A program made the translations under genes and the position numbers. Of a stretch of DNA of 41,460 bases, positions 3,293-40,196 are shown piece after piece (position 1 is the first letter of the stretch; each line of letters opens with the position of its first letter). The notes under the pieces are model-generated. The model searched no databases and was not told where the DNA came from. It was given only the letters and a program-made list of their open reading frames with translations. This DNA comes from a virus. Its lineage: Duplodnaviria; Heunggongvirae; Uroviricota; Caudoviricetes. The stretch is taken from the IMG/VR virus record IMGVR_UViG_2579778753_000003; one strand, given 5' to 3'.

Positions 3293-3378
3293 CAGAGCAA
3301 ATAAAACCACAGATTAAATAAGAAAATGTAAAAACAATCCGCATTCGCGGAGGTATTCGCACACGCCAAGGAGGCGTA

Positions 3379-3582
3379 ATGGCAATTAAGCATTTTCCTG
3401 TCGTTCGTTTTACCTCCAGAGGGCGTGAATACGAAGTCGACGAACGCCTGATTACCACAATCGACAAACACCGTTCAGAAAAGGATGCACATCACATCTA
3501 TCTCACTGACGGCACTTACTTCTGCGCCACGAATGTGGTGCGGGTGAACCTTATCCGACAGGTACAGGAGTCACGCAGATGA
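3379..3582 (+). CDS. Hypothetical early-operon protein
   Basis: 67-aa ORF with GGAGG upstream. Confidence 0.5.
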   Translation: MAIKHFPVVRFTSRGREYEVDERLITTIDKHRSEKDAHHIYLTDGTYFCATNVVRVNLIRQVQESRR

Positions 3583-3824
3583 CCATTCTGGACTATATCG
3601 CCGCCAATCCGGGGTGTAGCGGTGGAGAAATCGCCGCAGCACTGAATACCCCAACCACAGCCATTAATGCGGAGTTACGCCGACTCTGGCGCAGCGGTTC
3701 AGTCATAAGAAAAGAGCGCAAAACAGGCGGTCGCTTTTCTTACCAGATAAACCCGATGCCGTTCGGGTGCGGCAATCCACTTACCAACACGTTTAACCAG
3801 CTACTGAAGGAAGCCAGAGCATGA
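3579..3824 (+). CDS. Small winged-helix-like DNA-binding protein (putative)
   Basis: 81-aa ORF; MTILDYIAANPGCSGGEIAAALNTPTTAINAELRRLWRSGSV resembles a winged-helix fold; overlaps neighbours by 4 nt. Confidence 0.5.
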   Translation: MTILDYIAANPGCSGGEIAAALNTPTTAINAELRRLWRSGSVIRKERKTGGRFSYQINPMPFGCGNPLTNTFNQLLKEARA

Positions 3825-4120
3825 GCACCATCAACCACCAGAAGCTACGCGAACTGGCATTTGCCCTGCAACGAATGGCAACGCCTCAAAAATTACTGGC
3901 ATTTCGCGCAATGCTCTCGCCGTCTGCTGTGCTGGCACTGCTGAATGAGCTGGAGCACGCCAGAACCACGGCTCCTGCCATTCGCCTGACGCTCCATCAT
4001 GAAATCGCTGATTTCTGCGCGACGTTGGAGGCGCCGGGCGAACCGGAAACGCCGGAAGCAATACAGCAAGAGCTGCTGCAACGCATTGACAAGGTTTTTG
4101 ATTTTTTTCTGAACCAGTAA
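3821..4120 (+). CDS. Hypothetical early-operon protein
   Basis: 99-aa ORF, translationally coupled to the previous gene. Confidence 0.5.
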   Translation: MSTINHQKLRELAFALQRMATPQKLLAFRAMLSPSAVLALLNELEHARTTAPAIRLTLHHEIADFCATLEAPGEPETPEAIQQELLQRIDKVFDFFLNQ

Positions 4121-4243
4121 GAAACCAGAACATGCACACACAAAAAAACCGCTTGCCATGCCGCAATCAGTCAGGTTACATTTCCGCTGCACCTCATAAA
4201 ACGGGTGCCGGGATTTCCACCCCGCTGACAACTACAGCGCACA

Positions 4244-4263
4244 ACCGCGCCAGCGGTTTTTTT
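4244..4263 (+). terminator. Possible short intrinsic terminator
   Basis: accgc-gcca-gcggt hairpin followed by a T7 run, about 125 nt after the 3821-4120 gene. Confidence 0.3.
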
Positions 4264-4442
4264 GTGCGTACTGTATCGCCACGTCTTTTTCGCACACGAA
4301 TTATGGTGGGGCGTACGGGGCCGACTTCGGTCGGGCCGGGTTCTGTAGTTGCCGGTTGTGGAAACCCTGTACGTCTCACCACCCCGAGTTTTCCACCTCT
4401 GGATGGTGAGTTTTCAAAACTTGCAACTACAGAGGCCACACC

Positions 4443-4673
4443 ATGGCAAACCGCAAACAGCACCGCGCTATCGCGGAGCGTCGTCACATCCAGACTGAAA
4501 TCAACCGCAGACTTTTCCGCGCATCACGCGTCGCGCAAATCATGCACATCAATATGCTGCATGAGCGCAGCCACGCACTATCAAACATCTATTCCGCCGC
4601 TGTTTTCAGCTATCTGGCGGATGATCTGCACGAGCTTCAACAGCTCATCCAGCAGCAAAACAAACTCCATTAA
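4443..4673 (+). CDS. Hypothetical small protein
   Basis: 76-aa ORF (MANRKQHRAIAERRH...), co-oriented with the early operon. Confidence 0.45.
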   Translation: MANRKQHRAIAERRHIQTEINRRLFRASRVAQIMHINMLHERSHALSNIYSAAVFSYLADDLHELQQLIQQQNKLH

Positions 4674-4745
4674 TTCCTGTTCCGGGCCTTTCCTGCACCT
4701 TGCGGCGGGAGGCCTTCGCACATCTGTAACAAGAGGATTGCCGCA

Positions 4746-5111
4746 ATGATTCTCGCCAACGACTTTCTTGAATACCTGCTCAACACAGAGCGTGATCTTG
4801 CCGTTCGCGTGCGTGAACGTTATGACATGTACCTGAAATCCCTGCCTGTACCGCAGCTCGCTGACGGAAAGATTGTTATTGATGGTCGCTACATGATTGA
4901 CAGCCACGAGGGAAATTACAGGCTTTACCGCATTGAAGGTGGCACCCCGTCCGTTATTGGCATTTACCAGCGCCCATCCTCTGCAATCGTCGATGTGATT
5001 GCCGACAGCATCCGCATCACACATCGCCATGCCGACCCAGAAGACACCGTGCTGGAAATTCAGCGGCTGGCTACAGTCTGCCGCGACACCCTGAATGGCA
5101 TGACGAAGTAA
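4746..5111 (+). CDS. Hypothetical protein upstream of replication gene
   Basis: 121-aa ORF ending 7 nt before the replication gene. Confidence 0.55.
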   Translation: MILANDFLEYLLNTERDLAVRVRERYDMYLKSLPVPQLADGKIVIDGRYMIDSHEGNYRLYRIEGGTPSVIGIYQRPSSAIVDVIADSIRITHRHADPEDTVLEIQRLATVCRDTLNGMTK

Positions 5112-5117
5112 ATCACT

Positions 5118-7940
5118 ATGACGGCAGAGTACATCAGGGACTGGCAACAACCGCGCCACGCAGTGGGGCGTGAAGGAACGGGGATCCCCGCTCCTGAATC
5201 CGCACTTTCCTCCTGGCTGGATGCCTACCGGGTAGAGAACGAGCGCCGCCAGGAAATGGCTGATGCGGCGTTCTCCGCCACGCCGCTGGGCAACCTGATT
5301 AATAAAAGCCTGGACGCACAGGAAAAACAGGACAAAACCATCACACTGGCAGGAGACGCCAGAAAACAGGCACGCGGCGCAGTGGATGAAGCCATGGCCT
5401 CGCTGCGCCTGCTGCCGTCCTATCTGCGCGATCCGCTTATTCGCCACCTCTCCTTCCTGCGCAAAAAACAGGAAGCCGATCGCCGGAAAGGCAAAAAGAG
5501 CTGGCAGGCGGAACGCTATGCACGCGGAACCCTGCGCAAAATATTCGAACGTCTGGACCGCACCGATCACCGCTGGCTGACACCGGGTTATCGCTCCCTT
5601 GCCGGACGCGAACGCCTGGACGATTTGCTTTACCTGCCGCAGCTCAACAAACACCAGATACAGACGCTGGCCACCATGACGGCGGCGATGTTCAGCAGCA
5701 CCTTCGAAAAACTCTGCGATGGCTTTGGCGCGACCGATGGCGAGCTGACCATGGATGTAACGCTGAAGGCGTATCAGATGCTGGCCCGCATGGCGTTACA
5801 CCTGCACGCCATGCCTCCACATTATGACGCACTGACAACAGACAAAGACCGGAGGAACGAACCAGACACGGAGCTGCTGCCGGGCGCAATCCTTCGCCTG
5901 ACCTGTGCGGAATGGTGGAAACGCAAACTGTGGCTGTTACGTTGCGAGTGGCGGGAAGAACAACTCCGCGCCGCCTGTCTGGTTTCCAGAAAAACATCGC
6001 CCTATCTGAGCCAGGACGCGTTAAGCGAGTTTCGCGCACAGCGCGAGAAAACACGCGATTTCCTGAAAAGTTTCATGCTGGAAAATGAAGACGGGTTCAC
6101 GATTGATCTCGAGACGGTGTATTACGCGGGAGTAAGTAACCCGGTTCACCGTAAGGCAGAAATGATGGCCACCATGAAGGGACTGGAACTTCTGGCCGAA
6201 GCCCGTGGCGACAGAGCGGTGTTTCTGACCGTCACCTGCCCGTCAAAATACCACGCAACAACGGAGAACGGTCATCCGAACCCCAAATGGAACGGGGCCA
6301 CCATGCGCGACTCTAGCGATTACCTGGTTAACACGTTTTTTGCGGCGGTCCGCAAAAAACTGAACCGCGACGGCCTGCGCTGGTATGGCATCCGCACGGT
6401 GGAGCCTCACCATGACGGCGCTGTGCACTGGCATATGATGGTCTTTGCACATCCGGACGAGATTGAAACCATCGTGTCCCACGTCTGCGATATTGCCATT
6501 CAGGAGGACCGCCACGAGCTGGGCGATGACATAACTCCGCGTTTTAAGGCGGAGTATGTCGACGGCTCAAAAGGCACACCAACCAGCTACATCGCCACCT
6601 ACATCGGAAAGAACCTGGACAGCCGCGCCGTGGATGGCATCGACCCGAAAACGGGCAAGCCACGCGTTGACCACGAAACCGGAAAATCAATGGCCGAGAG
6701 CGTGGAGCGCGCCATCGGCTGGGCGCGCCTTCACCGGGTCCGTCAGTTCCAGTTCTTTGGCATCCCCTCCCGTCAGGTGTGGCGTGAACTGCGCCGCCTT
6801 GCCAGCCAGATGGCACGCAATCCGGAAGGCCCGCAACGGCTGAAAGATGATGCAATGGATGCGGTACTCGCTGCCGCCGATGCCGGGTGTTTTGCCACCT
6901 ACATTGAAAAACAGGGTGGCGTGCTTGTTCCACGCAAGGACTACCTGATTCGCACCGCCTACGACCTCGCAGATGAGCTGAACGATTACGGCGAACAGAG
7001 CGTACAGATTTACGGGATCTGGTCACCACTCATCGGGGAATCCTCCCGTGTGTGCACGCATCCGGATAACTGGAAGTTGGTAAGACGTAAACCAGAACCA
7101 GAAGACAACGCCCACGAAAATGGTTTTGACCTTCAGGGCGGCCCTGCCGCCCCTTGGACTCGTGGCAATAACTGTCCCCGTGTACAGGAAACGGACAACA
7201 ACGGGACAGAACAGCCGGAAGAACGGCCAGCACCGTGGCCGCAGCTCCCTGACGGCGTTGAAGTGAACGAATGGATGCGCTCACTGAAACGACACGAACG
7301 CCGGGCGCTGATGCGTTCGCTTCGTGACAAACAGGCAAAAAACAGCAGCGATGAAATGCAGAGCTGGACACAGAGCCGCAAACAGCAGCGGCCTTTGCCT
7401 GATAACCACGAATTACTCGCTAAAGAATGGCGGGAGTCTGCTGAATCTCTCGGCCTGCATATCGGTGAACAACAGATGCAGCACCTGTTACGGGGCGGCA
7501 GTCTGTACGTTGACGGCAGCATCATTGCACCGCAGGGATTTGAAATTGTACGCAAACCGGATACCCGCCCGGACAGCCGAATCACGCAGCTCTGGCAGCG
7601 CCTGAGCCGTAATCACGGCGTAAGCAGCACGGAGATCCGCCATAACCCGGTCTCCAGCTATCTGGCACAGCTCGGGGCATCAGACCCCGAAGCCGCCGCA
7701 CGCCTGGCATCCACACTTCAGCAGGTCCAGAACACCATGAAAACACCCGTTACCGTGCTTTCTGACATGCTGCGCGCCATTCGTGACGCAGAGCACGCAC
7801 AGAGAATCAGAGAAACCACTGAACGCGCCCGCCGCAAAGCAAACCTGCTGAGGGCTGGCCTGACCAGTGGAAACAAAAAACAGACAGAAACGGGATTCAC
7901 AAATCCCGTAAATGAGCAAAAAACGCGCCGCGATATATGA
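5118..7940 (+). CDS. Rolling-circle replication initiator (HUH endonuclease, P2 gpA-like)
   Basis: 940-aa ORF with an HUH-type motif (GAVHWHMMVFAH) and a paired-tyrosine motif (TSYIATYIGKN). It is longer than the 761 aa recalled for P2 gpA. Confidence 0.8.
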   Translation: MTAEYIRDWQQPRHAVGREGTGIPAPESALSSWLDAYRVENERRQEMADAAFSATPLGNLINKSLDAQEKQDKTITLAGDARKQARGAVDEAMASLRLLPSYLRDPLIRHLSFLRKKQEADRRKGKKSWQAERYARGTLRKIFERLDRTDHRWLTPGYRSLAGRERLDDLLYLPQLNKHQIQTLATMTAAMFSSTFEKLCDGFGATDGELTMDVTLKAYQMLARMALHLHAMPPHYDALTTDKDRRNEPDTELLPGAILRLTCAEWWKRKLWLLRCEWREEQLRAACLVSRKTSPYLSQDALSEFRAQREKTRDFLKSFMLENEDGFTIDLETVYYAGVSNPVHRKAEMMATMKGLELLAEARGDRAVFLTVTCPSKYHATTENGHPNPKWNGATMRDSSDYLVNTFFAAVRKKLNRDGLRWYGIRTVEPHHDGAVHWHMMVFAHPDEIETIVSHVCDIAIQEDRHELGDDITPRFKAEYVDGSKGTPTSYIATYIGKNLDSRAVDGIDPKTGKPRVDHETGKSMAESVERAIGWARLHRVRQFQFFGIPSRQVWRELRRLASQMARNPEGPQRLKDDAMDAVLAAADAGCFATYIEKQGGVLVPRKDYLIRTAYDLADELNDYGEQSVQIYGIWSPLIGESSRVCTHPDNWKLVRRKPEPEDNAHENGFDLQGGPAAPWTRGNNCPRVQETDNNGTEQPEERPAPWPQLPDGVEVNEWMRSLKRHERRALMRSLRDKQAKNSSDEMQSWTQSRKQQRPLPDNHELLAKEWRESAESLGLHIGEQQMQHLLRGGSLYVDGSIIAPQGFEIVRKPDTRPDSRITQLWQRLSRNHGVSSTEIRHNPVSSYLAQLGASDPEAAARLASTLQQVQNTMKTPVTVLSDMLRAIRDAEHAQRIRETTERARRKANLLRAGLTSGNKKQTETGFTNPVNEQKTRRDI

Positions 7941-8016: not shown

Positions 8017-8976
8017 ATGAAAATTTGTATCGACGACGGCTCCACCAACATCAAGCTGGCATGGACTGAGAATGGCGAACGCCGCAACGCCATCAGCCCG
8101 AACAGCTTCAAGTCGGAATGGTCTGCGCCGTTCGGTGACATGCAGCCCGCGAACTACATGCTTGATGGCGTGCGCTATGGTTTTGATCCGGTCAGCGATC
8201 GCTTTGTCCAGACGACCGACACGCAATACCAGTACAGCGATGTGAATGTAATCGCCATTCATCACGCGCTGGTCAAATCAGGCATCACGCCACAAGAGGT
8301 GGATGTGGTTGTCACCCTGCCACTGAGCGAGTATTTCGAGACAAACGCACAGCCGGACATGGCCAACATCAACCGCAAAAAAGCGAACGTTATGCGCCCG
8401 GTGGAATACCAGAACGGCGAAGCATTCACTATCCGTAACGTGCGGGTTATGCCTGAATCCATTCCGGCTGGCTTTAAAGCACTGGCTGACATGAGTCCGT
8501 TTGAATCCCTGCTGATTGTGGATTTAGGCGGAACCACGCTGGATGTGGCAAAGGTTCAAGGGCAACTGGCAGGTATCAGCCAGGTGTTTTGCGATCCACA
8601 CGTAGGCGTTTCCCTGATGGCCGATGCCGTACTGTCGGTGATGGCCACTAACGGTATGCGCACCAGTCACCACATCGCCAATACCATTATCGAACATCGC
8701 CATGATGAAGCCTGGCTGCGCCAGCACATCCACAATGACGCGCATTACGCCAGCCTGATGGCGGTTATTCGTGAAAAGGAAGAAACACTGAAACAACGCG
8801 TGATCCGCGCGCTGGCGGTTTTTTCGGGTTACGGGCGGGTGATGGTTGTCGGTGGAGGGGCGGAGATTGTGGCACCCGCTATCCGCGAAGTCTGCGGAGT
8901 TAATGCGACTTTCATCGCGGACGGGGTGCCACAGTTTGCTCTGGTTAATGGGCTGTACGCAATGGACAAGGAGTAA
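8017..8976 (+). CDS. parM: Actin-like partition ATPase, ParM/StbA family
   Basis: MKICIDDGSTNIKLAW..., TLPLSEYFETNAQP...RKKANV..., LIVDLGGTTLDVA..., VMVVGGGAE match the recalled ParM/StbA of plasmids R1 and R100. Confidence 0.8.
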   Translation: MKICIDDGSTNIKLAWTENGERRNAISPNSFKSEWSAPFGDMQPANYMLDGVRYGFDPVSDRFVQTTDTQYQYSDVNVIAIHHALVKSGITPQEVDVVVTLPLSEYFETNAQPDMANINRKKANVMRPVEYQNGEAFTIRNVRVMPESIPAGFKALADMSPFESLLIVDLGGTTLDVAKVQGQLAGISQVFCDPHVGVSLMADAVLSVMATNGMRTSHHIANTIIEHRHDEAWLRQHIHNDAHYASLMAVIREKEETLKQRVIRALAVFSGYGRVMVVGGGAEIVAPAIREVCGVNATFIADGVPQFALVNGLYAMDKE

Positions 8977-9378: not shown

Positions 9379-10221
9379 TCATGATGAAATTGCCGAAGTT
9401 TTTTTATCGTGCTGAAGTACCGCAAATGCCATTAAAACCTCAAGAGAATAGCGGCGATAATACTTAACAAAACCATAATAAAATACTCGGGATGCAGCAA
9501 TACAAAACAAGAGAAGAAAACAAAAAGGTAACAGTCTGATATTTATATCTATTAAAAAGGATAGAAGGAGCAGGAACATAAGCAACCAGACTGAAGCGAG
9601 AAAAACAAATGTAATGTTTCTACAAAAACCATACAAAGCAACATAGTTTTGCATTTTCACCTGATGATTTTTAGAATGTTCATACACATAATGATAAGCA
9701 AGGCGAAAAAGATCGCCCCTCAAGCCCTTACGTCGATATAGCGTAGATACAGAAAAAACATTTATATAACCATCTCGTATTTGCGGCCAAAAGACTTTAA
9801 TAAGTATAGAATGCAGTGTGGTTTTATGATGTTCTGCTTTATCAAAAGCTGATACAGGAAATAAAAAAACTCCACGAATAAAATTAACTATACTGAACTT
9901 AGTATTATGTCGTTTTATTTTCAGGGAGCTTCTTTTAGAAAACAGATAAATTGAAGGATACCCAAGTTTACTGTTCATGTATTTTTCAATTAAACAGGAT
10001 GATAGAATAGATATGAAGTGACCTGAAATATATGATAGAACGATTAATACCACATATATAAATACACTTATTATTTCTTTATATTTCAGGATATGGTTAA
10101 GAATACCTTCTATATAAACAGGGTTAATTTCAATAGAAAACAAAAAAAGGATAAACAGGAATAACCCACCTGGAATTAGATAGCCCAAAAAGTCATAAAA
10201 TGAAAACGGATTCTGTGTCAC
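9379..10221 (-). CDS. Multi-pass membrane protein, unknown family (cargo gene 2)
   Basis: 280-aa ORF, AT-rich and codon-atypical for the prophage; hydrophobic helices at both termini (LIPGGLFLFILFLF..., FVFLASVWLLMFLLLLSFL...); no recognisable motif. Confidence 0.7.
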   Translation of the reverse strand: MTQNPFSFYDFLGYLIPGGLFLFILFLFSIEINPVYIEGILNHILKYKEIISVFIYVVLIVLSYISGHFISILSSCLIEKYMNSKLGYPSIYLFSKRSSLKIKRHNTKFSIVNFIRGVFLFPVSAFDKAEHHKTTLHSILIKVFWPQIRDGYINVFSVSTLYRRKGLRGDLFRLAYHYVYEHSKNHQVKMQNYVALYGFCRNITFVFLASVWLLMFLLLLSFLIDINIRLLPFCFLLLFCIAASRVFYYGFVKYYRRYSLEVLMAFAVLQHDKKTSAISS

Positions 10222-10260
10222 ACTTCCCCCTGTGTTACTTGTAAATTAAAGGGTAAAACA

Positions 10261-10758
10261 TTATTTGTTTTTCCGTAAAGGATTAGCTTTCCATCTTCTT
10301 ACTAACCATTCGAATTCTTGATATGTAGTATCCGAATTAATGCTTTCTCTGATTGCTTTAATTAATGGCTCGGCAATATCATATGTCTCTACAACTGTTG
10401 TGTAAGATGTTCTTTTTATCATTTTTTCATCATAAATACCTTCACGAATACTTACAGCAACTCGCTCGTAAAAATTTAAAATATATTGAAATTTTCGACG
10501 CTCGGCCATTTCTTCATCTGTTATTATGCAACCATCACAAGGAAAAACATAAGAACGAAATGATTTGCCTGAACGATGCACTTGTTTCAGGGTATGCAAT
10601 GACTCTATATATTGCATATCTTGCCGACTCTCAAAAAGAAAGTTGGCCGTTTGAGTTTTTTTTGCGGTACGCACATTGTAGATAATGGTTCCAATGGCAA
10701 CCAAAACGCCAAGCAGAACAATAGCATTGCTGATGATTTGTAGTGTTATTGGGTTCAT
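10261..10758 (-). CDS. N-terminally membrane-anchored protein, unknown family (cargo gene 1)
   Basis: 165-aa ORF; N-terminal helix LQIISNAIVLLGVLVAIGTIIY followed by a soluble domain; AT-rich; 39 bp upstream of cargo gene 2 on the same strand. Confidence 0.7.
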   Translation of the reverse strand: MNPITLQIISNAIVLLGVLVAIGTIIYNVRTAKKTQTANFLFESRQDMQYIESLHTLKQVHRSGKSFRSYVFPCDGCIITDEEMAERRKFQYILNFYERVAVSIREGIYDEKMIKRTSYTTVVETYDIAEPLIKAIRESINSDTTYQEFEWLVRRWKANPLRKNK

Positions 10759-21806: not shown

Positions 21807-22703
21807 ATGCCCGCCGTTGACCTTTCCCAGTTACCGGACCCCGCCATCATCGCGGAGCCTGACTTTGAAGCAATTCTGGCTGACACAAAAGCCATGATGA
21901 TTGCGTCCTATCCCGCCGAACAGCGTGAAGCCGTTTCCGCCGCGCTGGAGCTGGAATCGGAACCCCTTAACGTTATCGCTCAAACCATGTCGTTTCGTGA
22001 AATGCTGTTACGCCAGCGGGTTAATGAGGGCGCACGCGCCTGTATGTTAAGCCACGGTTCAGGGACAAACCTGGACAACCTCGCGGGCAATATGAACACA
22101 AAGCGCCTGGTTATCACTCCGGCAACGGATACCACCGACGCGGTGATGGAGAGCGACACCTCGCTGAGACTGCGGGCGCAGCGGGCGTACGACGGCCTGA
22201 GTGTTGCTGGCCCGTCAGGTGCATACGAGTATTTTGCCCGCAGCGCCAGCGGTCTGGTGCGTGATGCGCGGGCTATCAGCCCGTCTCCGGCAAATGTGAC
22301 GGTTTCCATCCTGTCCACTGAGGGCGACGGCACAGCAACGGAGGCGTTGCTTAATACCGTTCGCGCCGTTCTGAATGCAGAGGATACCCGCCCGGTGGCC
22401 GACCGACTGACCGTACAGAGCGCCAGCATCGTGACATGGCGGCTGAATGCAAAACTGTACTTTTACCCCGGTCCGGAATCCGAACCTATTCTGGCCGCGG
22501 CGGAATCGTCATTCAGGAAGTGGCTGGCTGAACAGGGGCTTATCGGTCAGGACGTGGCGTTGTCCGCCATTGCTGCCGCACTTCATGTACACGGCGTGCA
22601 ACGCGTGGAGATAATCGAACCCACACAGAATATGGCCATCAGCGACATACAGGCGGCGCGCTGTGAGTCATTCACCATCAGCGAAGGTGGGCGTAATGAG
22701 TAA
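21807..22703 (+). CDS. J: Baseplate protein (P2 gpJ-like)
   Basis: 298 aa at the gpJ position. Confidence 0.85.
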   Translation: MPAVDLSQLPDPAIIAEPDFEAILADTKAMMIASYPAEQREAVSAALELESEPLNVIAQTMSFREMLLRQRVNEGARACMLSHGSGTNLDNLAGNMNTKRLVITPATDTTDAVMESDTSLRLRAQRAYDGLSVAGPSGAYEYFARSASGLVRDARAISPSPANVTVSILSTEGDGTATEALLNTVRAVLNAEDTRPVADRLTVQSASIVTWRLNAKLYFYPGPESEPILAAAESSFRKWLAEQGLIGQDVALSAIAAALHVHGVQRVEIIEPTQNMAISDIQAARCESFTISEGGRNE

Positions 22704-23228: not shown

Positions 23229-25331
23229 ATGAGTACCACAACACGAAAATTTAAAACCGTTATCACCGATACGGGTGCAAAAAAATTAGCTCAGGCAGCC
23301 GCGCCAGATGGTAAGCCTGTCCGCCTGACTCATATGGCCGTGGGCGACGGTGGCGGCACGTTGCCCACACCAGACAGTAAGCAGACCCGTCTGGTGCATG
23401 AGGTGTGGCGACACACTGTTAATCGCGTCATCCTGGACGCAACACATCAGAACCGCATTATTGCGGAGCTGGTTATTCCTCCTGAAACGGGCGGATTCTG
23501 GATCCGGGAAATTGGTGTATTTGATGAGCACGGCGATTTAATCGCGGTGGGCAATACTGCCGAAAGTTACAAACCAACCGTTGCCGAAGGGTCCGGACGT
23601 GCGCAAACATTTCGCACCATTCTGACCGTATCCAGCACTGCCACCGTGGCGCTTACCGTGGATAACACCATGGTGATGGCCACAGTGGATTACGTGGATG
23701 ACAAACTGAAAGAGCATGAACAGTCACGACGTCACCCGGATGCCTCGCTGACCGCAAAAGGCTTTGTTCAACTCAGTAGCGCCACTAACAGCGATTCTGA
23801 AACGCTGGCTGCAACGCCGAAAGCGGTTAAGGCCGCGTATGACCTGGCTAACGGAAAATATACCGCTCAGGACGCCACGACGGCACGAAAAGGGATAGTC
23901 CAGCTCAGCAGTGCAACCAACAGCACGTCTGAAACGCTGGCAGCGACACCAAAAGCGGTTAAGGCGGTAATGGATGAAACGAACAAGAAAGCCCCATTAA
24001 ACAGCCCGGCACTGACCGGAACGCCAACAACACCAACTGCACAACAGGGAACGAATAATACCCAAATCGCAAGCACGGCTTTCGTTATGGCCGCGATTGC
24101 CGCACTTGTAGACTCTTCACCTGACGCACTGAACACGCTGAACGAGCTGGCGGCGGCGCTGGGCAACGACCCGAATTTTGCGACCACCATGACTAACGCG
24201 CTTGCGGGTAAGCAACCGAAAGATGCCACCCTGACGGCGCTGGCCGGGCTTGCTACTGCAGCAGACAGGTTTCCGTATTTTACGGGGAATGATGTTGCCA
24301 GTCTGGCAACCCTGACAGAAGTCGGGCGGGATATTCTTGCGAAATCGACCGTTGCCGCTGTTATCGAATACCTCGGTTTACAGGAAACGGTAAATCAGGC
24401 TTCTGGCGCATTACAGAAAAACCAGAACGGCGCAGATATTCCGGGAAAAGATACCTTCACCAAAAATATTGGGGCCTGCCGCGCATATAGCGCATGGCTG
24501 GATATTGGTGGCGATAGTCAGGTCTGGACAACCGCGCAATTTATTTCGTGGCTGGAGAGTCAGGGAGCATTTAACCATCCTTACTGGATGTGCAAAGGCT
24601 CATGGGCTTATGCAAATAATAAGGTCATTACAGATACAGGTTGCGGAAATATTTGTCTTGCAGGTGCTGTGGTGGAAGTTATTGGCACTCGCGGCGCAAT
24701 GACCATACGCGTTACCACGCCGAGCACGTCCAGCGGTGGCGGAATTACTAACGCTCAATTCACTTATATTAATCATGGTGATGCTTACGCTCCTGGCTGG
24801 CGACGAGACTACAACACGAAAAATCAACAACCTGCATTTGCTTTAGGGCAAACAGGAAGCACTGTCGGAAATGATAAAGCTGTTGGCTGGAACTGGAATA
24901 GCGGGGTCTATAACGCAAACATTGGTGGCGCATCGACATTAATCCTCCACTTCAATATGAATACGGGGAGCTGCCCTGCTGTACAGTTCCGCGTGAATTA
25001 CAGGAACGGCGGTATTTTTTATCGTTCAGCGCGTGATGGTTATGGATTTGAGGCTGACTGGTCAGAGTTTTACACCACGACCCGCAAACCCTCTGCGGGA
25101 GATGTTGGTGCATACACGCAGGCAGAATGTAACTCAAGGTTTATTACAGGTATTCGCCTTGGCGGTCTGTCATCTGTTCAGACATGGAATGGTCCCGGCT
25201 GGTCTGACAGGTCAGGTTATGTCGTTACGGGTTCAGTTAACGGAAACCGTGATGAATTAATTGATACAACTCAGGCAAGGCCAATTCAGTATTGCATTAA
25301 TGGGACGTGGTATAACGCGGGGAGTATTTAA
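23229..25331 (+). CDS. H: Tail fibre protein (gpH-like), constant N-terminus fused to variable C-terminal cassette 1
   Basis: 700 aa with SSATNS.SETLAATPKAVKA repeats; a recombination site at 24361-24386 lies in-frame (encoding [10 protein letters not shown]). Confidence 0.85.
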   Translation: MSTTTRKFKTVITDTGAKKLAQAAAPDGKPVRLTHMAVGDGGGTLPTPDSKQTRLVHEVWRHTVNRVILDATHQNRIIAELVIPPETGGFWIREIGVFDEHGDLIAVGNTAESYKPTVAEGSGRAQTFRTILTVSSTATVALTVDNTMVMATVDYVDDKLKEHEQSRRHPDASLTAKGFVQLSSATNSDSETLAATPKAVKAAYDLANGKYTAQDATTARKGIVQLSSATNSTSETLAATPKAVKAVMDETNKKAPLNSPALTGTPTTPTAQQGTNNTQIASTAFVMAAIAALVDSSPDALNTLNELAAALGNDPNFATTMTNALAGKQPKDATLTALAGLATAADRFPYFTGNDVASLATLTEVGRDILAKSTVAAVIEYLGLQETVNQASGALQKNQNGADIPGKDTFTKNIGACRAYSAWLDIGGDSQVWTTAQFISWLESQGAFNHPYWMCKGSWAYANNKVITDTGCGNICLAGAVVEVIGTRGAMTIRVTTPSTSSGGGITNAQFTYINHGDAYAPGWRRDYNTKNQQPAFALGQTGSTVGNDKAVGWNWNSGVYNANIGGASTLILHFNMNTGSCPAVQFRVNYRNGGIFYRSARDGYGFEADWSEFYTTTRKPSAGDVGAYTQAECNSRFITGIRLGGLSSVQTWNGPGWSDRSGYVVTGSVNGNRDELIDTTQARPIQYCINGTWYNAGSI
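24361..24386. other. Invertase crossover site gixL-like
   Basis: ttatcgaatacc-tc-ggtttacaggaa, matching the recalled Gin/Cin/Pin site (ttatccaaaacc-tc-ggtttacaggaa). Confidence 0.7.
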
Positions 25332-25333
25332 CG

Positions 25334-25867
25334 ATGATGCACTTAAAAAACATTACTGCTGGCAACCCTAAAACAAAAGAGCAATACCAGCTAACGAAAC
25401 AATTTAACATCAAATGGCTTTATTCAGAGAATGGAAAAAACTGGTATGAGGAACAAAAGAATTTCCAGCCAGACACTTTGAAAATGGTCTATGACCATAA
25501 CGGCGTTATTATTTGTATTGAAAAGGATGTTTCAGCAATTAATCCGGAAGGCGCAAGCGTCGTTGAATTACCTGATATTACAGCAAATCGCCGTGCTGAC
25601 ATTTCGGGTAAATGGATGTTCAAAGATGGCGTAGTGGTAAAGCGAACTTATACCGAGGAAGAGCAGAGGCAGCAGGCGGAAAATGAAAAGCAAAGCCTGC
25701 TACAGCTCGTTAGGGATAAAACCCAGCTATGGGACTCACAGCTACGGCTGGGCATCATTTCCGACGAGAATAAACAAAAATTAACCGAGTGGATGCTCTA
25801 TGCGCAGAAAGTCGAATCTACAGACACCTCCAGCCTGCCAGTAACATTTCCCGAACAACCTGAATGA
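25334..25867 (+). CDS. G: Tail fibre assembly protein (gpG-like), partner of cassette 1
   Basis: 177 aa immediately after the tail fibre gene. Confidence 0.85.
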   Translation: MMHLKNITAGNPKTKEQYQLTKQFNIKWLYSENGKNWYEEQKNFQPDTLKMVYDHNGVIICIEKDVSAINPEGASVVELPDITANRRADISGKWMFKDGVVVKRTYTEEEQRQQAENEKQSLLQLVRDKTQLWDSQLRLGIISDENKQKLTEWMLYAQKVESTDTSSLPVTFPEQPE

Positions 25868-25895
25868 GACAAGGCCCGATAGCGGGCCTTAATTT

Positions 25896-26423
25896 TTATT
25901 CAGGCTTTTGTGGCCATTCAGGATTTGCCGTATCCACACGGCTGACCAGAACACTGTAGCGTTCCCATGCTTCCAGTCGTGTGCGTTCCTCGTCTGTTGC
26001 CATATTCAGCCTGACAGCGCGTTCCAGCGGCTGGATGACTGATTCAGCTTCGGAAAGCAATGCGGCCTTTTGTGATTCGGCTTGTTGTTGCTGTTCGTCT
26101 GCCGTATAAATCCGTTTAACTACAGCTCCATCCTTAAACATCCACTTTCCTGAATCATCAGCGCGGCGGTTGGCTGTAATATCTGGAACCTCAACGACGC
26201 TAAAACCTTCAGGGTTAAGCGTGGAGGCATCTTTAGTGATGGCGACAATAATATTATTTGCATCGTAAACAATCTTTATTGTGTCTGGCTGAAAGTTTTT
26301 CACTTCCTCATACCAGTTTTTTCCGTCCTCAGAGTAAAGCCAGATAACTCCGTGTTTCTTTGTTAACTCATACTGTTCCAGTGTTTTAGCGTTACCCGCT
26401 TTTATGTTCTTTAAGTGCATCAT
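25896..26423 (-). CDS. Alternative tail fibre assembly protein, partner of cassette 2
   Basis: 175 aa, about 50% identical to the gpG-like protein (MMHLKNI.AGN.KT.EQY.LTK...), inverted orientation. Confidence 0.8.
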
Positions 26424-26424
26424 A

Positions 26425-27449
26425 TTAAACGCTCGCTACATTATACCAGGTGCCATTTATATACTTTTGAACGGGTCTGTAATAAACGCCCGCTATATTA
26501 TCGGCAGAGTTGGACCCTGTATCCTGAACATTAATACCAGACAATACATGACCTGACGGGCACTGGAAATTCCATGTTTGCCAGTTGTTCACTCTATAAT
26601 ATTGCTGTGAACCAAGTCGAACATCTTTCACATATCTGGAATCAAAATTGCCATAGTTGCCGGGAATAACTTGCGCACCGCAAAGCCAGTTTCCGTTATT
26701 ATCCATGTACGCCTGACCATCGGTGCCATTGGCTGTCCTTGAATTATTAATCATGTAGATGCCAAATTGCTTATTTCCCAGACCGCCAATCATAAATTTG
26801 CGGTCGGCATGGTCCTGACGGAGCAAAGCCTGAGCACCATCAGTGGATACCGCATTACGTCCCATAATAACGTTCTGGTCACGCATATGAATCCACATGC
26901 CTGTACTGCTGTTAATTAAAAAACGGTTTGCAAATATATCTCCTGTAACATCCAGACCATGCCCCATAGTTATGCGACCAGTTCTGAGATTAAGCGTAAA
27001 GGGGCGTAGTGGCCCTATATCGCCATTTTCCCCCTCATTTTCTCGGGTAGGGATGATATGAAGACATTCTTCAGAACGGCGAAAAATAGCACCAAAAGAT
27101 GAATTAAATATCCTCAGTGCATTGACTGTCGATATTTTTACTTCACTGCTGAAAAGGGCTTTAACAAGAACAGACAAAGCATCCCATTTAAGATTCATCA
27201 GGTCTTTTGTTGTGGTGCTTTGTTTGCTTCTCCATTTGAAATATTCATTGCCGTTGTCGCCTGTTTCAAACCACATGTATGAATCAGTATCGCTGTCGGC
27301 ATCATTTTTAAAACCAATCTTTGCCCAGTCAGTATTCCGAATCCAGGCAAGGATTGAGTCGTTTTCAAAAGTAAGCCCACCGGACAAGATATCGCCTGTC
27401 TTTTGGACGGCGTTACCAGCCTTGTTTACCGTTTCCTGTAAACCGAGGT
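26425..27449 (-). CDS. Alternative tail fibre C-terminal cassette 2 (promoterless in this orientation)
   Basis: Frame is open from the centre through ...[30 protein letters not shown]...; no ATG start; would fuse to the constant tail-fibre N-terminus after inversion. Confidence 0.7.
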
Positions 27450-27450
27450 A

Positions 27451-28475
27451 ACCTCGGTTTACAGGAAACGGTAAACAAGGCTGGTAACGCCGTCCAAAAG
27501 ACAGGCGATATCTTGTCCGGTGGGCTTACTTTTGAAAACGACTCAATCCTTGCCTGGATTCGGAATACTGACTGGGCAAAGATTGGTTTTAAAAATGATG
27601 CCGACAGCGATACTGATTCATACATGTGGTTTGAAACAGGCGACAACGGCAATGAATATTTCAAATGGAGAAGCAAACAAAGCACCACAACAAAAGACCT
27701 GATGAATCTTAAATGGGATGCTTTGTCTGTTCTTGTTAAAGCCCTTTTCAGCAGTGAAGTAAAAATATCGACAGTCAATGCACTGAGGATATTTAATTCA
27801 TCTTTTGGTGCTATTTTTCGCCGTTCTGAAGAATGTCTTCATATCATCCCTACCCGAGAAAATGAGGGGGAAAATGGCGATATAGGGCCACTACGCCCCT
27901 TTACGCTTAATCTCAGAACTGGTCGCATAACTATGGGGCATGGTCTGGATGTTACAGGAGATATATTTGCAAACCGTTTTTTAATTAACAGCAGTACAGG
28001 CATGTGGATTCATATGCGTGACCAGAACGTTATTATGGGACGTAATGCGGTATCCACTGATGGTGCTCAGGCTTTGCTCCGTCAGGACCATGCCGACCGC
28101 AAATTTATGATTGGCGGTCTGGGAAATAAGCAATTTGGCATCTACATGATTAATAATTCAAGGACAGCCAATGGCACCGATGGTCAGGCGTACATGGATA
28201 ATAACGGAAACTGGCTTTGCGGTGCGCAAGTTATTCCCGGCAACTATGGCAATTTTGATTCCAGATATGTGAAAGATGTTCGACTTGGTTCACAGCAATA
28301 TTATAGAGTGAACAACTGGCAAACATGGAATTTCCAGTGCCCGTCAGGTCATGTATTGTCTGGTATTAATGTTCAGGATACAGGGTCCAACTCTGCCGAT
28401 AATATAGCGGGCGTTTATTACAGACCCGTTCAAAAGTATATAAATGGCACCTGGTATAATGTAGCGAGCGTTTAA
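27451..28475 (+). CDS. Duplicate (mirror) copy of cassette 2
   Basis: Identical translation to 26425-27387 on the opposite strand. Confidence 0.65.
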
Positions 28476-28476
28476 T

Positions 28477-29004
28477 ATGATGCACTTAAAGAACATAAAA
28501 GCGGGTAACGCTAAAACACTGGAACAGTATGAGTTAACAAAGAAACACGGAGTTATCTGGCTTTACTCTGAGGACGGAAAAAACTGGTATGAGGAAGTGA
28601 AAAACTTTCAGCCAGACACAATAAAGATTGTTTACGATGCAAATAATATTATTGTCGCCATCACTAAAGATGCCTCCACGCTTAACCCTGAAGGTTTTAG
28701 CGTCGTTGAGGTTCCAGATATTACAGCCAACCGCCGCGCTGATGATTCAGGAAAGTGGATGTTTAAGGATGGAGCTGTAGTTAAACGGATTTATACGGCA
28801 GACGAACAGCAACAACAAGCCGAATCACAAAAGGCCGCATTGCTTTCCGAAGCTGAATCAGTCATCCAGCCGCTGGAACGCGCTGTCAGGCTGAATATGG
28901 CAACAGACGAGGAACGCACACGACTGGAAGCATGGGAACGCTACAGTGTTCTGGTCAGCCGTGTGGATACGGCAAATCCTGAATGGCCACAAAAGCCTGA
29001 ATAA
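28477..29004 (+). CDS. Duplicate (mirror) copy of the alternative tail fibre assembly gene
   Basis: Identical translation to 25896-26423 on the opposite strand. Confidence 0.7.
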
Positions 29005-29032
29005 AAATTAAGGCCCGCTATCGGGCCTTGTC

Positions 29033-29566
29033 TCATTCAGGTTGTTCGGGAAATGTTACTGGCAGGCTGGAGGTGTCTGTAGATTCGACTTTCTGCGCAT
29101 AGAGCATCCACTCGGTTAATTTTTGTTTATTCTCGTCGGAAATGATGCCCAGCCGTAGCTGTGAGTCCCATAGCTGGGTTTTATCCCTAACGAGCTGTAG
29201 CAGGCTTTGCTTTTCATTTTCCGCCTGCTGCCTCTGCTCTTCCTCGGTATAAGTTCGCTTTACCACTACGCCATCTTTGAACATCCATTTACCCGAAATG
29301 TCAGCACGGCGATTTGCTGTAATATCAGGTAATTCAACGACGCTTGCGCCTTCCGGATTAATTGCTGAAACATCCTTTTCAATACAAATAATAACGCCGT
29401 TATGGTCATAGACCATTTTCAAAGTGTCTGGCTGGAAATTCTTTTGTTCCTCATACCAGTTTTTTCCATTCTCTGAATAAAGCCATTTGATGTTAAATTG
29501 TTTCGTTAGCTGGTATTGCTCTTTTGTTTTAGGGTTGCCAGCAGTAATGTTTTTTAAGTGCATCAT
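29033..29566 (-). CDS. Duplicate (mirror) copy of the gpG-like tail fibre assembly gene
   Basis: Identical translation to 25334-25867 on the opposite strand. Confidence 0.7.
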   Translation of the reverse strand: MMHLKNITAGNPKTKEQYQLTKQFNIKWLYSENGKNWYEEQKNFQPDTLKMVYDHNGVIICIEKDVSAINPEGASVVELPDITANRRADISGKWMFKDGVVVKRTYTEEEQRQQAENEKQSLLQLVRDKTQLWDSQLRLGIISDENKQKLTEWMLYAQKVESTDTSSLPVTFPEQPE

Positions 29567-29568
29567 CG

Positions 29569-30508
29569 TTAAATACTCCCCGCGTTATACCACGTCCCAT
29601 TAATGCAATACTGAATTGGCCTTGCCTGAGTTGTATCAATTAATTCATCACGGTTTCCGTTAACTGAACCCGTAACGACATAACCTGACCTGTCAGACCA
29701 GCCGGGACCATTCCATGTCTGAACAGATGACAGACCGCCAAGGCGAATACCTGTAATAAACCTTGAGTTACATTCTGCCTGCGTGTATGCACCAACATCT
29801 CCCGCAGAGGGTTTGCGGGTCGTGGTGTAAAACTCTGACCAGTCAGCCTCAAATCCATAACCATCACGCGCTGAACGATAAAAAATACCGCCGTTCCTGT
29901 AATTCACGCGGAACTGTACAGCAGGGCAGCTCCCCGTATTCATATTGAAGTGGAGGATTAATGTCGATGCGCCACCAATGTTTGCGTTATAGACCCCGCT
30001 ATTCCAGTTCCAGCCAACAGCTTTATCATTTCCGACAGTGCTTCCTGTTTGCCCTAAAGCAAATGCAGGTTGTTGATTTTTCGTGTTGTAGTCTCGTCGC
30101 CAGCCAGGAGCGTAAGCATCACCATGATTAATATAAGTGAATTGAGCGTTAGTAATTCCGCCACCGCTGGACGTGCTCGGCGTGGTAACGCGTATGGTCA
30201 TTGCGCCGCGAGTGCCAATAACTTCCACCACAGCACCTGCAAGACAAATATTTCCGCAACCTGTATCTGTAATGACCTTATTATTTGCATAAGCCCATGA
30301 GCCTTTGCACATCCAGTAAGGATGGTTAAATGCTCCCTGACTCTCCAGCCACGAAATAAATTGCGCGGTTGTCCAGACCTGACTATCGCCACCAATATCC
30401 AGCCATGCGCTATATGCGCGGCAGGCCCCAATATTTTTGGTGAAGGTATCTTTTCCCGGAATATCTGCGCCGTTCTGGTTTTTCTGTAATGCGCCAGAAG
30501 CCTGATTT
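29569..30508 (-). CDS. Duplicate (mirror) copy of cassette 1 (promoterless)
   Basis: Translation identical to the tail-fibre C-terminus; frame is open up to the gixR-like site. Confidence 0.65.
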
Positions 30509-30513
30509 ACCGT

Positions 30514-30539
30514 TTCCTGTAAACCGAGGTTTTAGATAA
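30514..30539. other. Invertase crossover site gixR-like
   Basis: ttcctgtaaacc-ga-ggttttagataa; mirror of the left site with two outer-arm mismatches; 37 bp upstream of the invertase gene. Confidence 0.7.
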
Positions 30540-30575
30540 TGGCCGTTTCCGGCCTGCATGGCATGATTTGCGCTT

Positions 30576-31181
30576 TTGGACGGGAGATTCAGCGTGCTGA
30601 TTGGCTATGTAAGGGTATCAACAAATGACCAGAATACAGACCTGCAACGAAACGCTCTTGTTTGTGCAGGATGTGAACAAATATTTGAAGATAAATTAAG
30701 CGGGACAAAGACAGACCGACCGGGATTAAAACGCGCTTTAAAGCGCCTTCAAAAAGGTGACACGCTGGTTGTCTGGAAACTGGATCGCCTCGGGCGAAGC
30801 ATGAAACATCTGATTTCTCTCGTCGGGGAACTACGGGAGCGAGGAATTAATTTTCGCAGTCTGACCGACAGCATAGATACATCTTCTCCAATGGGGCGTT
30901 TTTTCTTCCACGTGATGGGTGCCCTGGCTGAAATGGAACGTGAATTAATTGTTGAACGTACACTGGCCGGACTGGCGGCAGCACGCGCACGGGGGCGCAC
31001 AGGCGGACGTCGACCGAAGCTGACAAAAGAACAGCATGAGCAAATAGCAAGGCTGATCAAAAACGGGCACGACAGAAAACAACTGGCAATAATTTACGGC
31101 ATTGGTATATCGACGATTTATCGTTACCACCCCGCAGGAGAATCAATCGGAACAATAGAGAAGAGTCAGGAAACAAAATAA
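30576..31181 (+). CDS. Serine DNA invertase (Gin/Cin/Pin/Hin family)
   Basis: LIGYVRVSTNDQNTDLQRNAL...DTLVVWKLDRLGRSMKHLI... with a C-terminal helix-turn-helix (GISTIYRY); an alternative GTG start at 30594 gives the canonical N-terminus. Confidence 0.9.
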   Translation: MDGRFSVLIGYVRVSTNDQNTDLQRNALVCAGCEQIFEDKLSGTKTDRPGLKRALKRLQKGDTLVVWKLDRLGRSMKHLISLVGELRERGINFRSLTDSIDTSSPMGRFFFHVMGALAEMERELIVERTLAGLAAARARGRTGGRRPKLTKEQHEQIARLIKNGHDRKQLAIIYGIGISTIYRYHPAGESIGTIEKSQETK

Positions 31182-38111: not shown

Positions 38112-38372
38112 ATGTTCCGTTGTCCGCTTTGTGGCGCATCTGCCCGTATCCGCACCAGTCGTCCGGAAAATGATTCAAACACCGTGCGGCAAAAGTATTA
38201 CCAGTGTAACAATCTGGAATGCGGCGTATGCTTCTCAACACTGGAAGCCTTCCATAAATTCACATCAAAACACGCCTCCGGCGTTCACTCTTCAGAAGGT
38301 ATCCCGTGGCATGAGCTGCCAGCTTCACACAGGGGAAACAATCAGATGAGTTTGCCTTTACCTCAGAATTAA
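38112..38372 (+). CDS. ogr: Late-gene transcription activator, Ogr/Delta zinc-finger family
   Basis: MFRCPLCGASARIRTSR...KYYQCNNLECGVCFST: a C4 zinc finger as in recalled P2 Ogr (MFHCPLC...YHQCQNVNCSATF). Confidence 0.85.
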   Translation: MFRCPLCGASARIRTSRPENDSNTVRQKYYQCNNLECGVCFSTLEAFHKFTSKHASGVHSSEGIPWHELPASHRGNNQMSLPLPQN

Positions 38373-38965: not shown

Positions 38966-39298
38966 ATGGCATTAATCAAATGTCCTGAATGCCAGAAAGA
39001 GGTGAGCGATTCAGCATTGTATTGCCCTGCTTGTGGTAAACAACTGCAAAAACTTAAGCGTTCATTTTTTGGACGGATCATTAAGTGGGTTTTTATATTA
39101 TTTAATATTTTTATGATCTATACGCTTTTAGTTGGACTAGGAGGCACTAGTGAAATAATAAATAATGCCACATCCGATGCCGAAAAAGCCGGTGCAGTTA
39201 TTGGTACAGGCTTAGGTTTAATTACCATTGGAAGCTTATGGGTTATTGGCGATATCATTATCGGAATTTTAGTATTTCTTACTAAACCAAAGGGATAA
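38966..39298 (+). CDS. Zinc-ribbon membrane protein, unknown function
   Basis: 110 aa; CPEC...CPAC zinc ribbon followed by two hydrophobic helices; AGGAGG Shine-Dalgarno; AT-rich. Confidence 0.6.
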   Translation: MALIKCPECQKEVSDSALYCPACGKQLQKLKRSFFGRIIKWVFILFNIFMIYTLLVGLGGTSEIINNATSDAEKAGAVIGTGLGLITIGSLWVIGDIIIGILVFLTKPKG

Positions 39299-39302
39299 TA
39301 AA

Positions 39303-40196
39303 ATGAAAAATATAATTTTTTCTATAGGTGCATCATTTATATCAATTAGTGTACTGCCTGTTCACGCAGCAACTGAACATAAGAACTTCAATGCAGTACT
39401 CCAGTGCCGAGCAATAGAAAATAATAAAGACAGACTTTCTTGTTACGATAAGTCAATACAACCGACTCGAACGAAAGTTGCTGAAAAATTCGAAAGCAGA
39501 GATCAATGCCCTGATGAGAAAGATGATGATAGACGTTTATCTTGTTATGATCGTTTCTTTTCTCCAACATTTACTCCATCTGTAAACTCAAAATCTAAAA
39601 CGGAAAAGCCAGTAACAACAGAGGCTCAGCAACCAAATCTTTCTGAGATATCTAAATGTCGTGCAGAAAATGATAAAGAAGCCAGACTAAACTGCTACGA
39701 TAAACTATTCCCACAGGATAAAATCGTTCAAGCTGAATCAAAATTAGAGAAAGCCACAGATGTAGGAAAATGGCACACATCCATTACTACATCGCCAATT
39801 GATGATTCGAAAAATGTAATTTTATCGTTAGAAAGTGATGATTATATCAGAACTCCATTTGGAGAAGCGGTTACTCCTACTCTTTTTATAGCTTGCCGAG
39901 AAAAGAAAACCGAAGTATTTCTTAGTTGGGATGTATATTTAGGCCTTGAACAAACCAGCATGCTTTATCGCCTTGATAAACAGAAAGCAGTTGAGCGAAA
40001 CTGGCTAGTATCTACAGATACAAAGGCTGTTTTTTATAAAGGTAATGACATTGATTTCATCCGAAAACTAGCCAACTCAAGCAAAATGTATACAAAAATA
40101 ACGCCTTATAATGAGAGCCCCGTAAGTGCAACTTTCAATTTAAACGGCCTGTCAAACGCGCTAAAACCGCTTCAAGCTGCTTGTAACTGGAAATAG
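39303..40196 (+). CDS. Secreted protein with three cysteine-pair repeats, unknown function
   Basis: 297 aa; signal peptide (cleavage after VHA), three copies of a C-x8/9-RL-x-CYD-K/R motif, then a roughly 150-aa C-terminal domain; AT-rich. Confidence 0.65.
   Translation: MKNIIFSIGASFISISVLPVHAATEHKNFNAVLQCRAIENNKDRLSCYDKSIQPTRTKVAEKFESRDQCPDEKDDDRRLSCYDRFFSPTFTPSVNSKSKTEKPVTTEAQQPNLSEISKCRAENDKEARLNCYDKLFPQDKIVQAESKLEKATDVGKWHTSITTSPIDDSKNVILSLESDDYIRTPFGEAVTPTLFIACREKKTEVFLSWDVYLGLEQTSMLYRLDKQKAVERNWLVSTDTKAVFYKGNDIDFIRKLANSSKMYTKITPYNESPVSATFNLNGLSNALKPLQAACNWK

Follow-up and report, generated by a model that had tools for sequence, protein, structure and literature searches.

The DNA analyzed here, a stretch of 41,460 nt hereafter called the window, carries a P2-type prophage that extends over 38,372 bp from int to ogr, or over 35,291 bp when an extra arm in its tail-fibre region is left out. 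A PADLOC scan of the cargo genes returned one weak match, to Csx27 at 1e-5. The tail-fibre region contains the following features:

23229-24360, + strand: constant N-terminal part (Sc) of a P2 gpH-like tail-fibre gene (ORF 23229-25331, 700 aa)
24361-24386, + strand: left 26-bp crossover site, gixL-like, TTATCGAATACC TC GGTTTACAGGAA, within the fibre gene (2 mismatches to Mu gixL)
24370-27449, + strand: arm 1, the orientation-invariant unit X of 3,080 nt, one genuine copy of the invertible segment
up to 25331, + strand: Sv1, in arm 1
25334-25867, + strand: chaperone U1, in arm 1
25896-26423, - strand: chaperone U2, in arm 1
26425 to about 27444, - strand: Sv2, in arm 1
27450, no strand: centre base, the probable join of two contig ends (N in KK736492.1, A in the window)
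27451-30530, - strand: arm 2, exact reverse complement of X, in all probability an artefactual second copy (missing from close relatives)
30514-30539, + strand: right 26-bp crossover site, gixR-like, TTCCTGTAAACC GA GGTTTTAGATAA (1 mismatch to Mu gixR)
30594-31181, + strand: Gin-family serine DNA invertase, 195 aa, GTG start (Pfam Resolvase 1.3e-50, HTH_7 1.6e-13)

Judged by its sequence, the real element at this locus is a tail-fibre switch of the known Gin type (as in the Mu G segment), carried by a P2-type, P88-like prophage of E. coli. The invertase gene adjoins the segment, is intact and encodes the Resolvase and HTH_7 domains of Pfam, while the two crossover sites, which are inverted with respect to each other and consist of 12-bp half-sites around a 2-bp core, both agree with the published consensus (PMC4134206 Table 3). 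The crossover site inside the fibre gene leaves both frames open, giving a fibre of 700 aa in state A and one of 721 aa in the simulated state B; the Pfam families Phage_tail_fib and Phage_fiber_2 were matched on a protein identical to the 700-aa fibre. Two Caudo_TAP genes are present, one chaperone for each fibre C-terminus. Downstream of the right site, positions 30540-30900 of the window match the equivalent region of Mu gin at 92.8% identity; a Fis-dependent recombinational enhancer may lie towards the 5' end of the invertase gene.

An inverted repeat search of the window returned arms of 3,089 nt at 24361-27449 and 27451-30539 with 1 nt between them, and a base-by-base check bore out the statement of the initial annotation that a palindrome is present and mirrored about base 27450. 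Its perfection over 6.1 kb holds for 24370-27449 and 27451-30530 (3,080 nt per arm) but not for the outermost 9 nt of the arms, where two mismatches (24369/30531 and 24366/30534) are found because the outer half-sites of the two crossover sites are non-identical. The cassette set is indeed followed by its own mirror image, the arms being reverse complements with zero divergence between them, and a perfect inverted repeat of 3 kb cannot have arisen by chance. Complete gix-like sites are confined to the outer ends (24361-24386 and 30514-30539), as had been described, and none is present at the centre, which reads TTCCTGTAAACC-GAGGTAACCTC-GGTTTACAGGAA; the earlier description of two inner half-sites facing each other across an 11-nt spacer can thus be read directly in the sequence.

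We also agree that an invertase did not produce this centre. When exchange at the 2-bp cores was worked through, both within and between molecules, every route left only the 2-nt core between the inner half-sites, instead of 11 nt. A hairpin formed at a recombinase-cleaved end does not fit either, since the cleavage point, GA, precedes the observed fold by 3-4 nt, and snap-back priming at the site was rejected because its lone self-complementarity, AAACC-GA-GGTTT, predicts a 2-nt centre.

The window derives from the E. coli draft scaffold KK736492.1 (GCA_000692755.1), which is identical to window positions 13229-35331 at 22,102 of 22,103 bases. The sole difference falls on 27450, corresponding to scaffold position 2,516,835, which is N in the record and A in the window; the record therefore lacks a fully called sequence through the centre of the palindrome, and it is the rendering of this N as A that makes the 6.1-kb palindrome look seamless. 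A single N could, in principle, represent one uncalled base within genuinely contiguous sequence. From the KK scaffold accession and a scaffold of 2.86 Mb we infer that short reads and a jumping library were assembled with a scaffolder of the ALLPATHS-LG type. A literature search by accession found no paper on the assembly project or method of GCA_000692755.1, and the papers on ALLPATHS-LG, though they mention efasta ambiguities, yielded no definite explanation of what a lone N in its output means.

The two orientation states were then simulated from the single-copy layout, with k values of 31, 55, 96 and 127. At every k tested the unit common to both simulated states is 24370-27449, which is exactly one arm, and the window equals stateA[:27449] + 1 base + stateB[24370:]. 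Immediately past the shared unit, one state has T where the other has A, and the N falls on this base. The outer junctions belong to different states, the left one being Sc-Sv1 (H::Sv1, state A) and the right one Sv1'-invertase (H::Sv2, state B). Hence the fold point is not independent of assembly-graph topology, the arms matching the orientation-invariant graph unit to the base.

Comparison with related prophages, proposed in the initial annotation as a check, shows that the close relatives are all single-copy and lack the second arm. The doubled layout occurs in 0 of 5,426 complete E. coli genomes, in none of which a single locus reaches 80% coverage of the 8.4-kb query; in the best relatives the match extends over 5,320 bp, compared with 8,401 bp for the query, and the difference of 3,081 bp corresponds to one arm plus the centre base. 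The exact 31-nt centre has no match in viral contigs or in the contigs of GTDB-representative genomes, so that neither layout nor centre gives a sign of heritability in related genomes. Both orientations are represented among relatives that are at least 99% identical. The complete genome CP159994.1 is in state A, with a single-copy segment that has 3 mismatches to X and an identical 700-aa fibre, whereas the relative L001 carries a single copy in the opposite orientation (state B), its 721-aa fibre sharing 715 of 721 residues with the one simulated for state B. In CP103557.1 the homologous segment folds back on itself, with the centre of the fold inside a cassette and imperfect symmetry near that centre. 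We rejected it as a sign of a recurrent real phenomenon, since its junction is private to one assembly, imperfect and within a cassette, and a shared biological mechanism is unsupported.

These comparisons bear on the possibility that this strain really carries an inverted duplication formed by fold-back (template switching). By that route, replication would have copied X, moved to the complementary strand where the right site has its inner end, copied X back, and rejoined the original template through the 29 nt of inverted homology at the outer site. Such events are consistent with the window sequence, the sites at the outer junctions are intact, and CP103557.1 also folds back in the homologous segment. 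We nevertheless consider this origin very improbable. The fold point lies exactly on a branch point of the assembly graph and not on a microhomology, the sole snap-back pairing at the site (AAACC/GGTTT around GA) would leave a spacer of 2 nt instead of 11 nt, the centre base is N in the record, the arms are without any divergence, and the structure was not found in any relative, the case of CP103557.1 being private to one assembly. Moreover, SbcCD+ cells of E. coli, including those that are rec+, do not survive a chromosomal perfect palindrome of 460 bp (PMC4245961), and lethality would be expected for perfect palindromes of at least this length in an SbcCD+ strain. It is equally hard to believe in a real spacer-less palindrome of 6.1 kb that folded back at a Gin-type site and is either tolerated despite SbcCD or has just formed. 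If it were true, the prophage would be fixed on a single type of tail fibre, and one uncalled base would account for the lone N. The previously proposed lock into cassette 1 is therefore logically right for a real palindrome, but becomes moot when the duplication is not real.

An artefact could also have arisen from chimeric hairpin or fold-back molecules in the library, or from reads of that kind, instead of from the scaffolder pairing of orientation-specific contigs. Molecules of this sort break at random, whereas the break here coincides exactly with the graph branch, and the junction is an N and not read-derived sequence; we thus give little credence to this source, even if fold-back chimeras are a known library artefact for which Forde et al. 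screened contig ends (hairpin artefacts; PMC4134206). CP103557.1, with its imperfect centre within a cassette, may itself be one.

Least probable of all, to the point of being negligible, is a true shufflon with multiple cassettes, like Min of p15B, whose two halves could invert independently by means of two sites that overlap at the centre (TTCCTGTAAACC GA GGTAACCTCGGT and its complement). Each central site does retain one perfect inner half-site and the GA/TC core, and the invertase is intact, but the outer half of each is formed by the core region of its neighbour and has little resemblance to the half-site consensus (PMC4134206 Table 3). Multiple inversion systems have more than two distinct cassettes, with a complete crossover site between one and the next; the window contains just two, each present twice at 100% identity, an arrangement that brings no gain in host range. 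The N at the centre and the occurrence of the layout in none of the 5,426 genomes speak against it as well.

The results of our analysis instead indicate, with a probability of roughly 93%, that the palindrome is a scaffolding or assembly artefact in which one switch was written twice, once per orientation, and joined by an N. This reading is built directly on that N, on the coincidence of the arms with the orientation-invariant unit, and on relatives that are single-copy and occur in two orientation states. The real layout would be one 3.1-kb segment, in the order Sc / site / Sv1-U1-U2'-Sv2' / site / invertase, and the sequenced culture would have contained cells of both orientations, as the chimeric junctions lead us to infer. 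The assembly graph would then represent the segment between the sites as a single unit, each end of which joins either flank. A first contig would comprise the left flank and X, with the left junction of state A, and the next one the reverse complement of X and the right flank, with the right junction of state B; the two would have been set side by side in the scaffold with a single N between them. This N may stand for a gap of minimum size (the true gap being about minus 3.08 kb), or it may encode the ambiguity at the first base of the branch. Both the identity of the assembler and its behaviour in these steps are likewise deduced. The reading has a precedent in the work of Forde et al. [quoted passage not shown] Of the three origins put forward in the initial annotation, the chimeric assembly of both orientations is consequently supported, but neither duplication by fold-back nor a shufflon of several cassettes; its presentation of the palindrome as a biological structure is likewise unsupported, the evidence favouring an assembly artefact.

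As biology, the palindrome has no significance, for the element beneath it is a textbook host-range switch of the Mu-G type in a common P2-like prophage. The artefact nevertheless gives indirect evidence of active inversion of the switch in the culture that was sequenced. It also indicates that in-line mirror duplications can occur at invertible segments in draft scaffolds, where they mislead gene counts and scans for 'novel architecture', and that the conversion of N to a base can create seamless-looking junctions: here the N shown as A hid the single clue to the join.

One of the closest known systems is the G segment of phage Mu. It resembles X with 93% DNA identity over 2.1 kb and has the common layout Sc / site / Sv-U-U'-Sv' / site / invertase; the invertase of the window is 85.6% identical to Mu Gin over 181 aa, and, of its crossover sites, one differs from gixR by 1 base and the other from gixL by 2. 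In contrast to Mu, the switch of the window resides in a P2-type (P88-like) prophage and is fused to a gpH-like constant region, and the doubled copy forms no part of the biology.

The Phi4 prophage of EC958 provides a second parallel, since its Phi4_5prime site is identical to the left site of the window (TTATCGAATACCTC GGTTTACAGGAA) and it also has an invertible segment of about 3.1 kb in a P2-like prophage (PMC4134206). Mixed orientations in one culture and the side-effects of these on assembly were documented in the EC958 study (PMC4134206). The alternative orientation appeared there as a separate spurious contig, whereas in the window it would have been scaffolded in line to yield a palindrome; the Phi4 invertase is, moreover, truncated (PMC4134206), whereas that of the window is intact.

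The engineered palindromes studied in E. coli by the Leach laboratory have perfect arms and no central spacer, as the window would if its palindrome were real (PMC4245961). They measure 460 bp and are already lethal with SbcCD (PMC4245961), against 6.1 kb in a natural isolate for that of the window, a comparison which argues against its existence.

The best match in the phage collection is Escherichia phage P88 (Xuanwuvirus, Peduoviridae), with 95.3% identity. Its genome of 35,814 bp compares with 35,291 bp for the prophage of the window without the extra arm, and it carries a fibre, two chaperones, an alternative fibre and a DNA invertase as in the window prophage, but in a single-copy layout. 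Finally, p15B Min, as Sandmeier is said to have described in 1994, has several Sv cassettes together with a Gin-family invertase. In this and similar shufflon-like systems complete sites lie between distinct cassettes, whereas in the window two cassettes are duplicated exactly around a centre that has no complete site.

Base-by-base comparison of the inverted-repeat arms returned by a repeat search of the window (24361-27449 and 27451-30539, with one base in between) confines the perfect portion to 24370-27449 and 27451-30530, 3,080 nt each, hereafter X and its reverse complement. The initial annotation had described 24361-30539 as a perfect palindrome; the mirror is indeed present, but two mismatches lie within the outermost 9 nt of the arms, where each arm ends in the outer half of a 26-bp crossover site. 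These gix-like sites at the outer ends, correctly recognized before, differ from Mu gixL (left site) and gixR (right site) by two bases and one base, respectively.

Features of the tail-fibre region (window positions; genes from ORFs and Pfam)
23229-25331, + strand, gpH-like fibre with C-terminal cassette Sv1
24361-24386, left crossover site, TTATCGAATACC TC GGTTTACAGGAA, within the tail-fibre gene
25334-25867, + strand, Caudo_TAP chaperone U1
25896-26423, - strand, chaperone U2
26425 to about 27444, - strand, alternative cassette Sv2
27451-30530, exact mirror of the fibre-cassette/chaperone arm
30514-30539, right crossover site, TTCCTGTAAACC GA GGTTTTAGATAA, immediately upstream of the invertase
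30594-31181, + strand, serine invertase

The centre of the palindrome reads TTCCTGTAAACC GAGGTAACCTC GGTTTACAGGAA, namely two inner half-sites facing each other across 11 nt, as originally noted. Since recombination by the invertase would leave the inner half-sites only a 2-nt core apart, this origin was rejected, in agreement with the earlier view that the centre is not a simple invertase product. The multi-cassette shufflon also proposed needs distinct cassettes and complete internal sites, neither of which is present in the window, and was discarded.

Searching the 700-aa fibre as an exact protein matched two contigs, KK736492.1 and CP159994.1. The former, a 2.86 Mb E. coli scaffold of GCA_000692755.1, holds the doubled layout and is the source of the window, being identical to window positions 13229-35331 at 22,102 of 22,103 positions. 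The two differ only at the centre of symmetry, position 27450, where the record has N and the window A; hence this A is not sequence data and the middle base of the 11-nt spacer is undefined. The N-to-base conversion concealed the sole trace of a join and produced a seamless-looking palindrome, and the same silent substitution may affect other windows.

We then rebuilt the single-copy segment in one orientation (state A) by removing one arm and the centre base from the window, and in the other (state B) by inverting state A between the two core dinucleotides, in serine-invertase fashion. The stretch with k-mers common to both states is 24370-27449, exactly one arm, at k = 31, 55, 96 and 127, and stateA[:27449] + one base + stateB[24370:] reproduces the window. 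Past the shared unit, the next base is T where the invertase side follows and A where the reverse complement of the fibre side does, so that the N falls on the first branching base of the graph. Moreover, the left outer junction, between the constant N-terminal part of the fibre (Sc) and Sv1, is that of state A, and the right one (Sv1'-invertase) that of state B. The N at the branch and these junctions favour the chimeric assembly of both orientations listed among the initial candidates: the palindrome is present in the window yet is not a real biological feature, and we put the probability of a scaffolding artefact at about 0.93. The culture would have been mixed for both orientations, with one contig ending in flank plus X and the next starting with the reverse complement of X plus flank; the scaffolder would have placed the two next to one another and, faced with a true gap of about minus 3.08 kb, written a minimal N. 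Its accession type and scaffold size suggest that KK736492.1 was made by a short-read plus jumping-library scaffolder. For E. coli EC958, about half of the PacBio reads supported each orientation of the prophage Phi1 segment, and spurious alternative-allele contigs were obtained; the authors caution that building such contigs into an assembly creates artefactual duplications in phage regions (Forde et al., PMC4134206), an account that describes the doubled layout of the window.

A real fold-back duplication of X in the strain, also among the initial candidates, would need a fold point equal to the graph branch to the base, and this without supporting microhomology, for the AAACC/GGTTT pairing of the site predicts a 2-nt centre. 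Its product would also have to survive SbcCD, which cuts both replicated copies of a 460-bp perfect palindrome in the E. coli chromosome; such a palindrome is lethal even to recombination-proficient cells, and a 20-bp central spacer rescues them (Azeroglu et al., PMC4245961). On this basis, a normal isolate should be unable to maintain a palindrome of 6.1 kb whose spacer is 1 nt or shorter, and all real readings taken jointly are very unlikely. Chimeric fold-back reads, a different route to an artefact, would break at random sites and leave determined sequence instead of an N at the branch; we consider them very unlikely. For quality control, the case is a reminder that draft scaffolds can contain mirror duplications and that converting N to a base can hide a join.

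Comparison with related prophages, suggested earlier as a check, did not recover the doubled layout. Matches to the 8.4-kb region occur in 3,181 of 5,426 complete E. coli genomes, in no case reaching 80% of its length, and the best relatives have 5,320 bp versus 8,401 in the window, the difference of 3,081 bp being one arm plus the centre base. The complete genome CP159994.1, with identical fibre, flanks 99.2-99.9% identical and three mismatches to X, carries the segment once in state A, while CP132979.1 (99.2% identical) has a single copy in state B, its fibre agreeing with the state-B simulation in 715 of 721 residues. Near-identical prophages thus carry the segment in either orientation and never more than once. 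In viral and species-representative genome collections, the exact 31-nt centre has no match.

Two other E. coli assemblies are irregular in the homologous segment. The 'complete' ST131 genome of strain 4993 (NZ_CP103557.1) has its own fold-back at 3802-6930 of the compared locus, with arms of 1,564 nt (3802-5365 and 5367-6930; 98% complementarity) and an imperfect centre within the 3' end of Sv2, most of which is missing. This junction is unique to that record among the 5,426 genomes, other ST131 genomes being 100% identical only until the fold point, and is probably a long-read misassembly or private rearrangement. In strain WAT (NZ_CP012380.1), the segment (3362-6496 of the compared locus) is a mosaic of near-mirror blocks (308, 147 and 367 nt; 98-100% complementarity) that contains several fibre and chaperone pseudogenes, frameshifted or partial, and looks like a consensus of reads from both orientations. 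Together, these records suggest recurring assembly problems at invertible tail-fibre segments rather than palindromes as a typical trait of the phage family.

The host element is a P2-type prophage extending from integrase (1-1020) to ogr (38112-38372) and adjoining flk in the E. coli chromosome. Its gpA-like replication protein (5118-7940, +; 940 aa) has the Phage_GPA domain at residues 179-503 only, the approximately 440 C-terminal residues having no family match. Right behind it lies a full-length ParM/StbA-type actin-like segregation protein (8017-8976, +; Pfam StbA_N 2.9e-82, ParM C-terminal 1.1e-68), a plasmid-partition-type gene that is unexpected in an integrated P2-type prophage. The variable region between the replication and portal/terminase genes, a known defence-gene hotspot in P2-like phages, holds two cargo genes (9379-10758, -), encoding a DUF4760 protein (10261-10758; 1.8e-34) and a 280-aa protein without Pfam match and with a weak PADLOC match to Csx27 (1.1e-5). 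The host flank past ogr, by flk (38966-40196, +), contains a Hok/Gef-type gene, a zinc-ribbon protein and a TagO/VasI-type 'type VI secretion-associated' protein (Pfam VasI, 5.1e-25), and is common as a whole to about 225 of the 5,426 genomes.

The nearest phage is P88, whose genome of 35,814 bp is near the int-to-ogr length without the extra arm (35,291 bp; 38,372 bp with it). The invertase (Resolvase and HTH_7 domains) is 85.6% identical to Mu Gin, the Mu G segment is 93% identical to the window segment across 2.1 kb, and the fibre gene stays open over the junction peptide in either orientation (700 aa in state A, 721 aa in state B). The underlying element is an already known Gin-type host-range switch, an invertible tail-fibre segment whose left site is identical to the 5' crossover site of EC958 prophage Phi4 (PMC4134206, Table 3).
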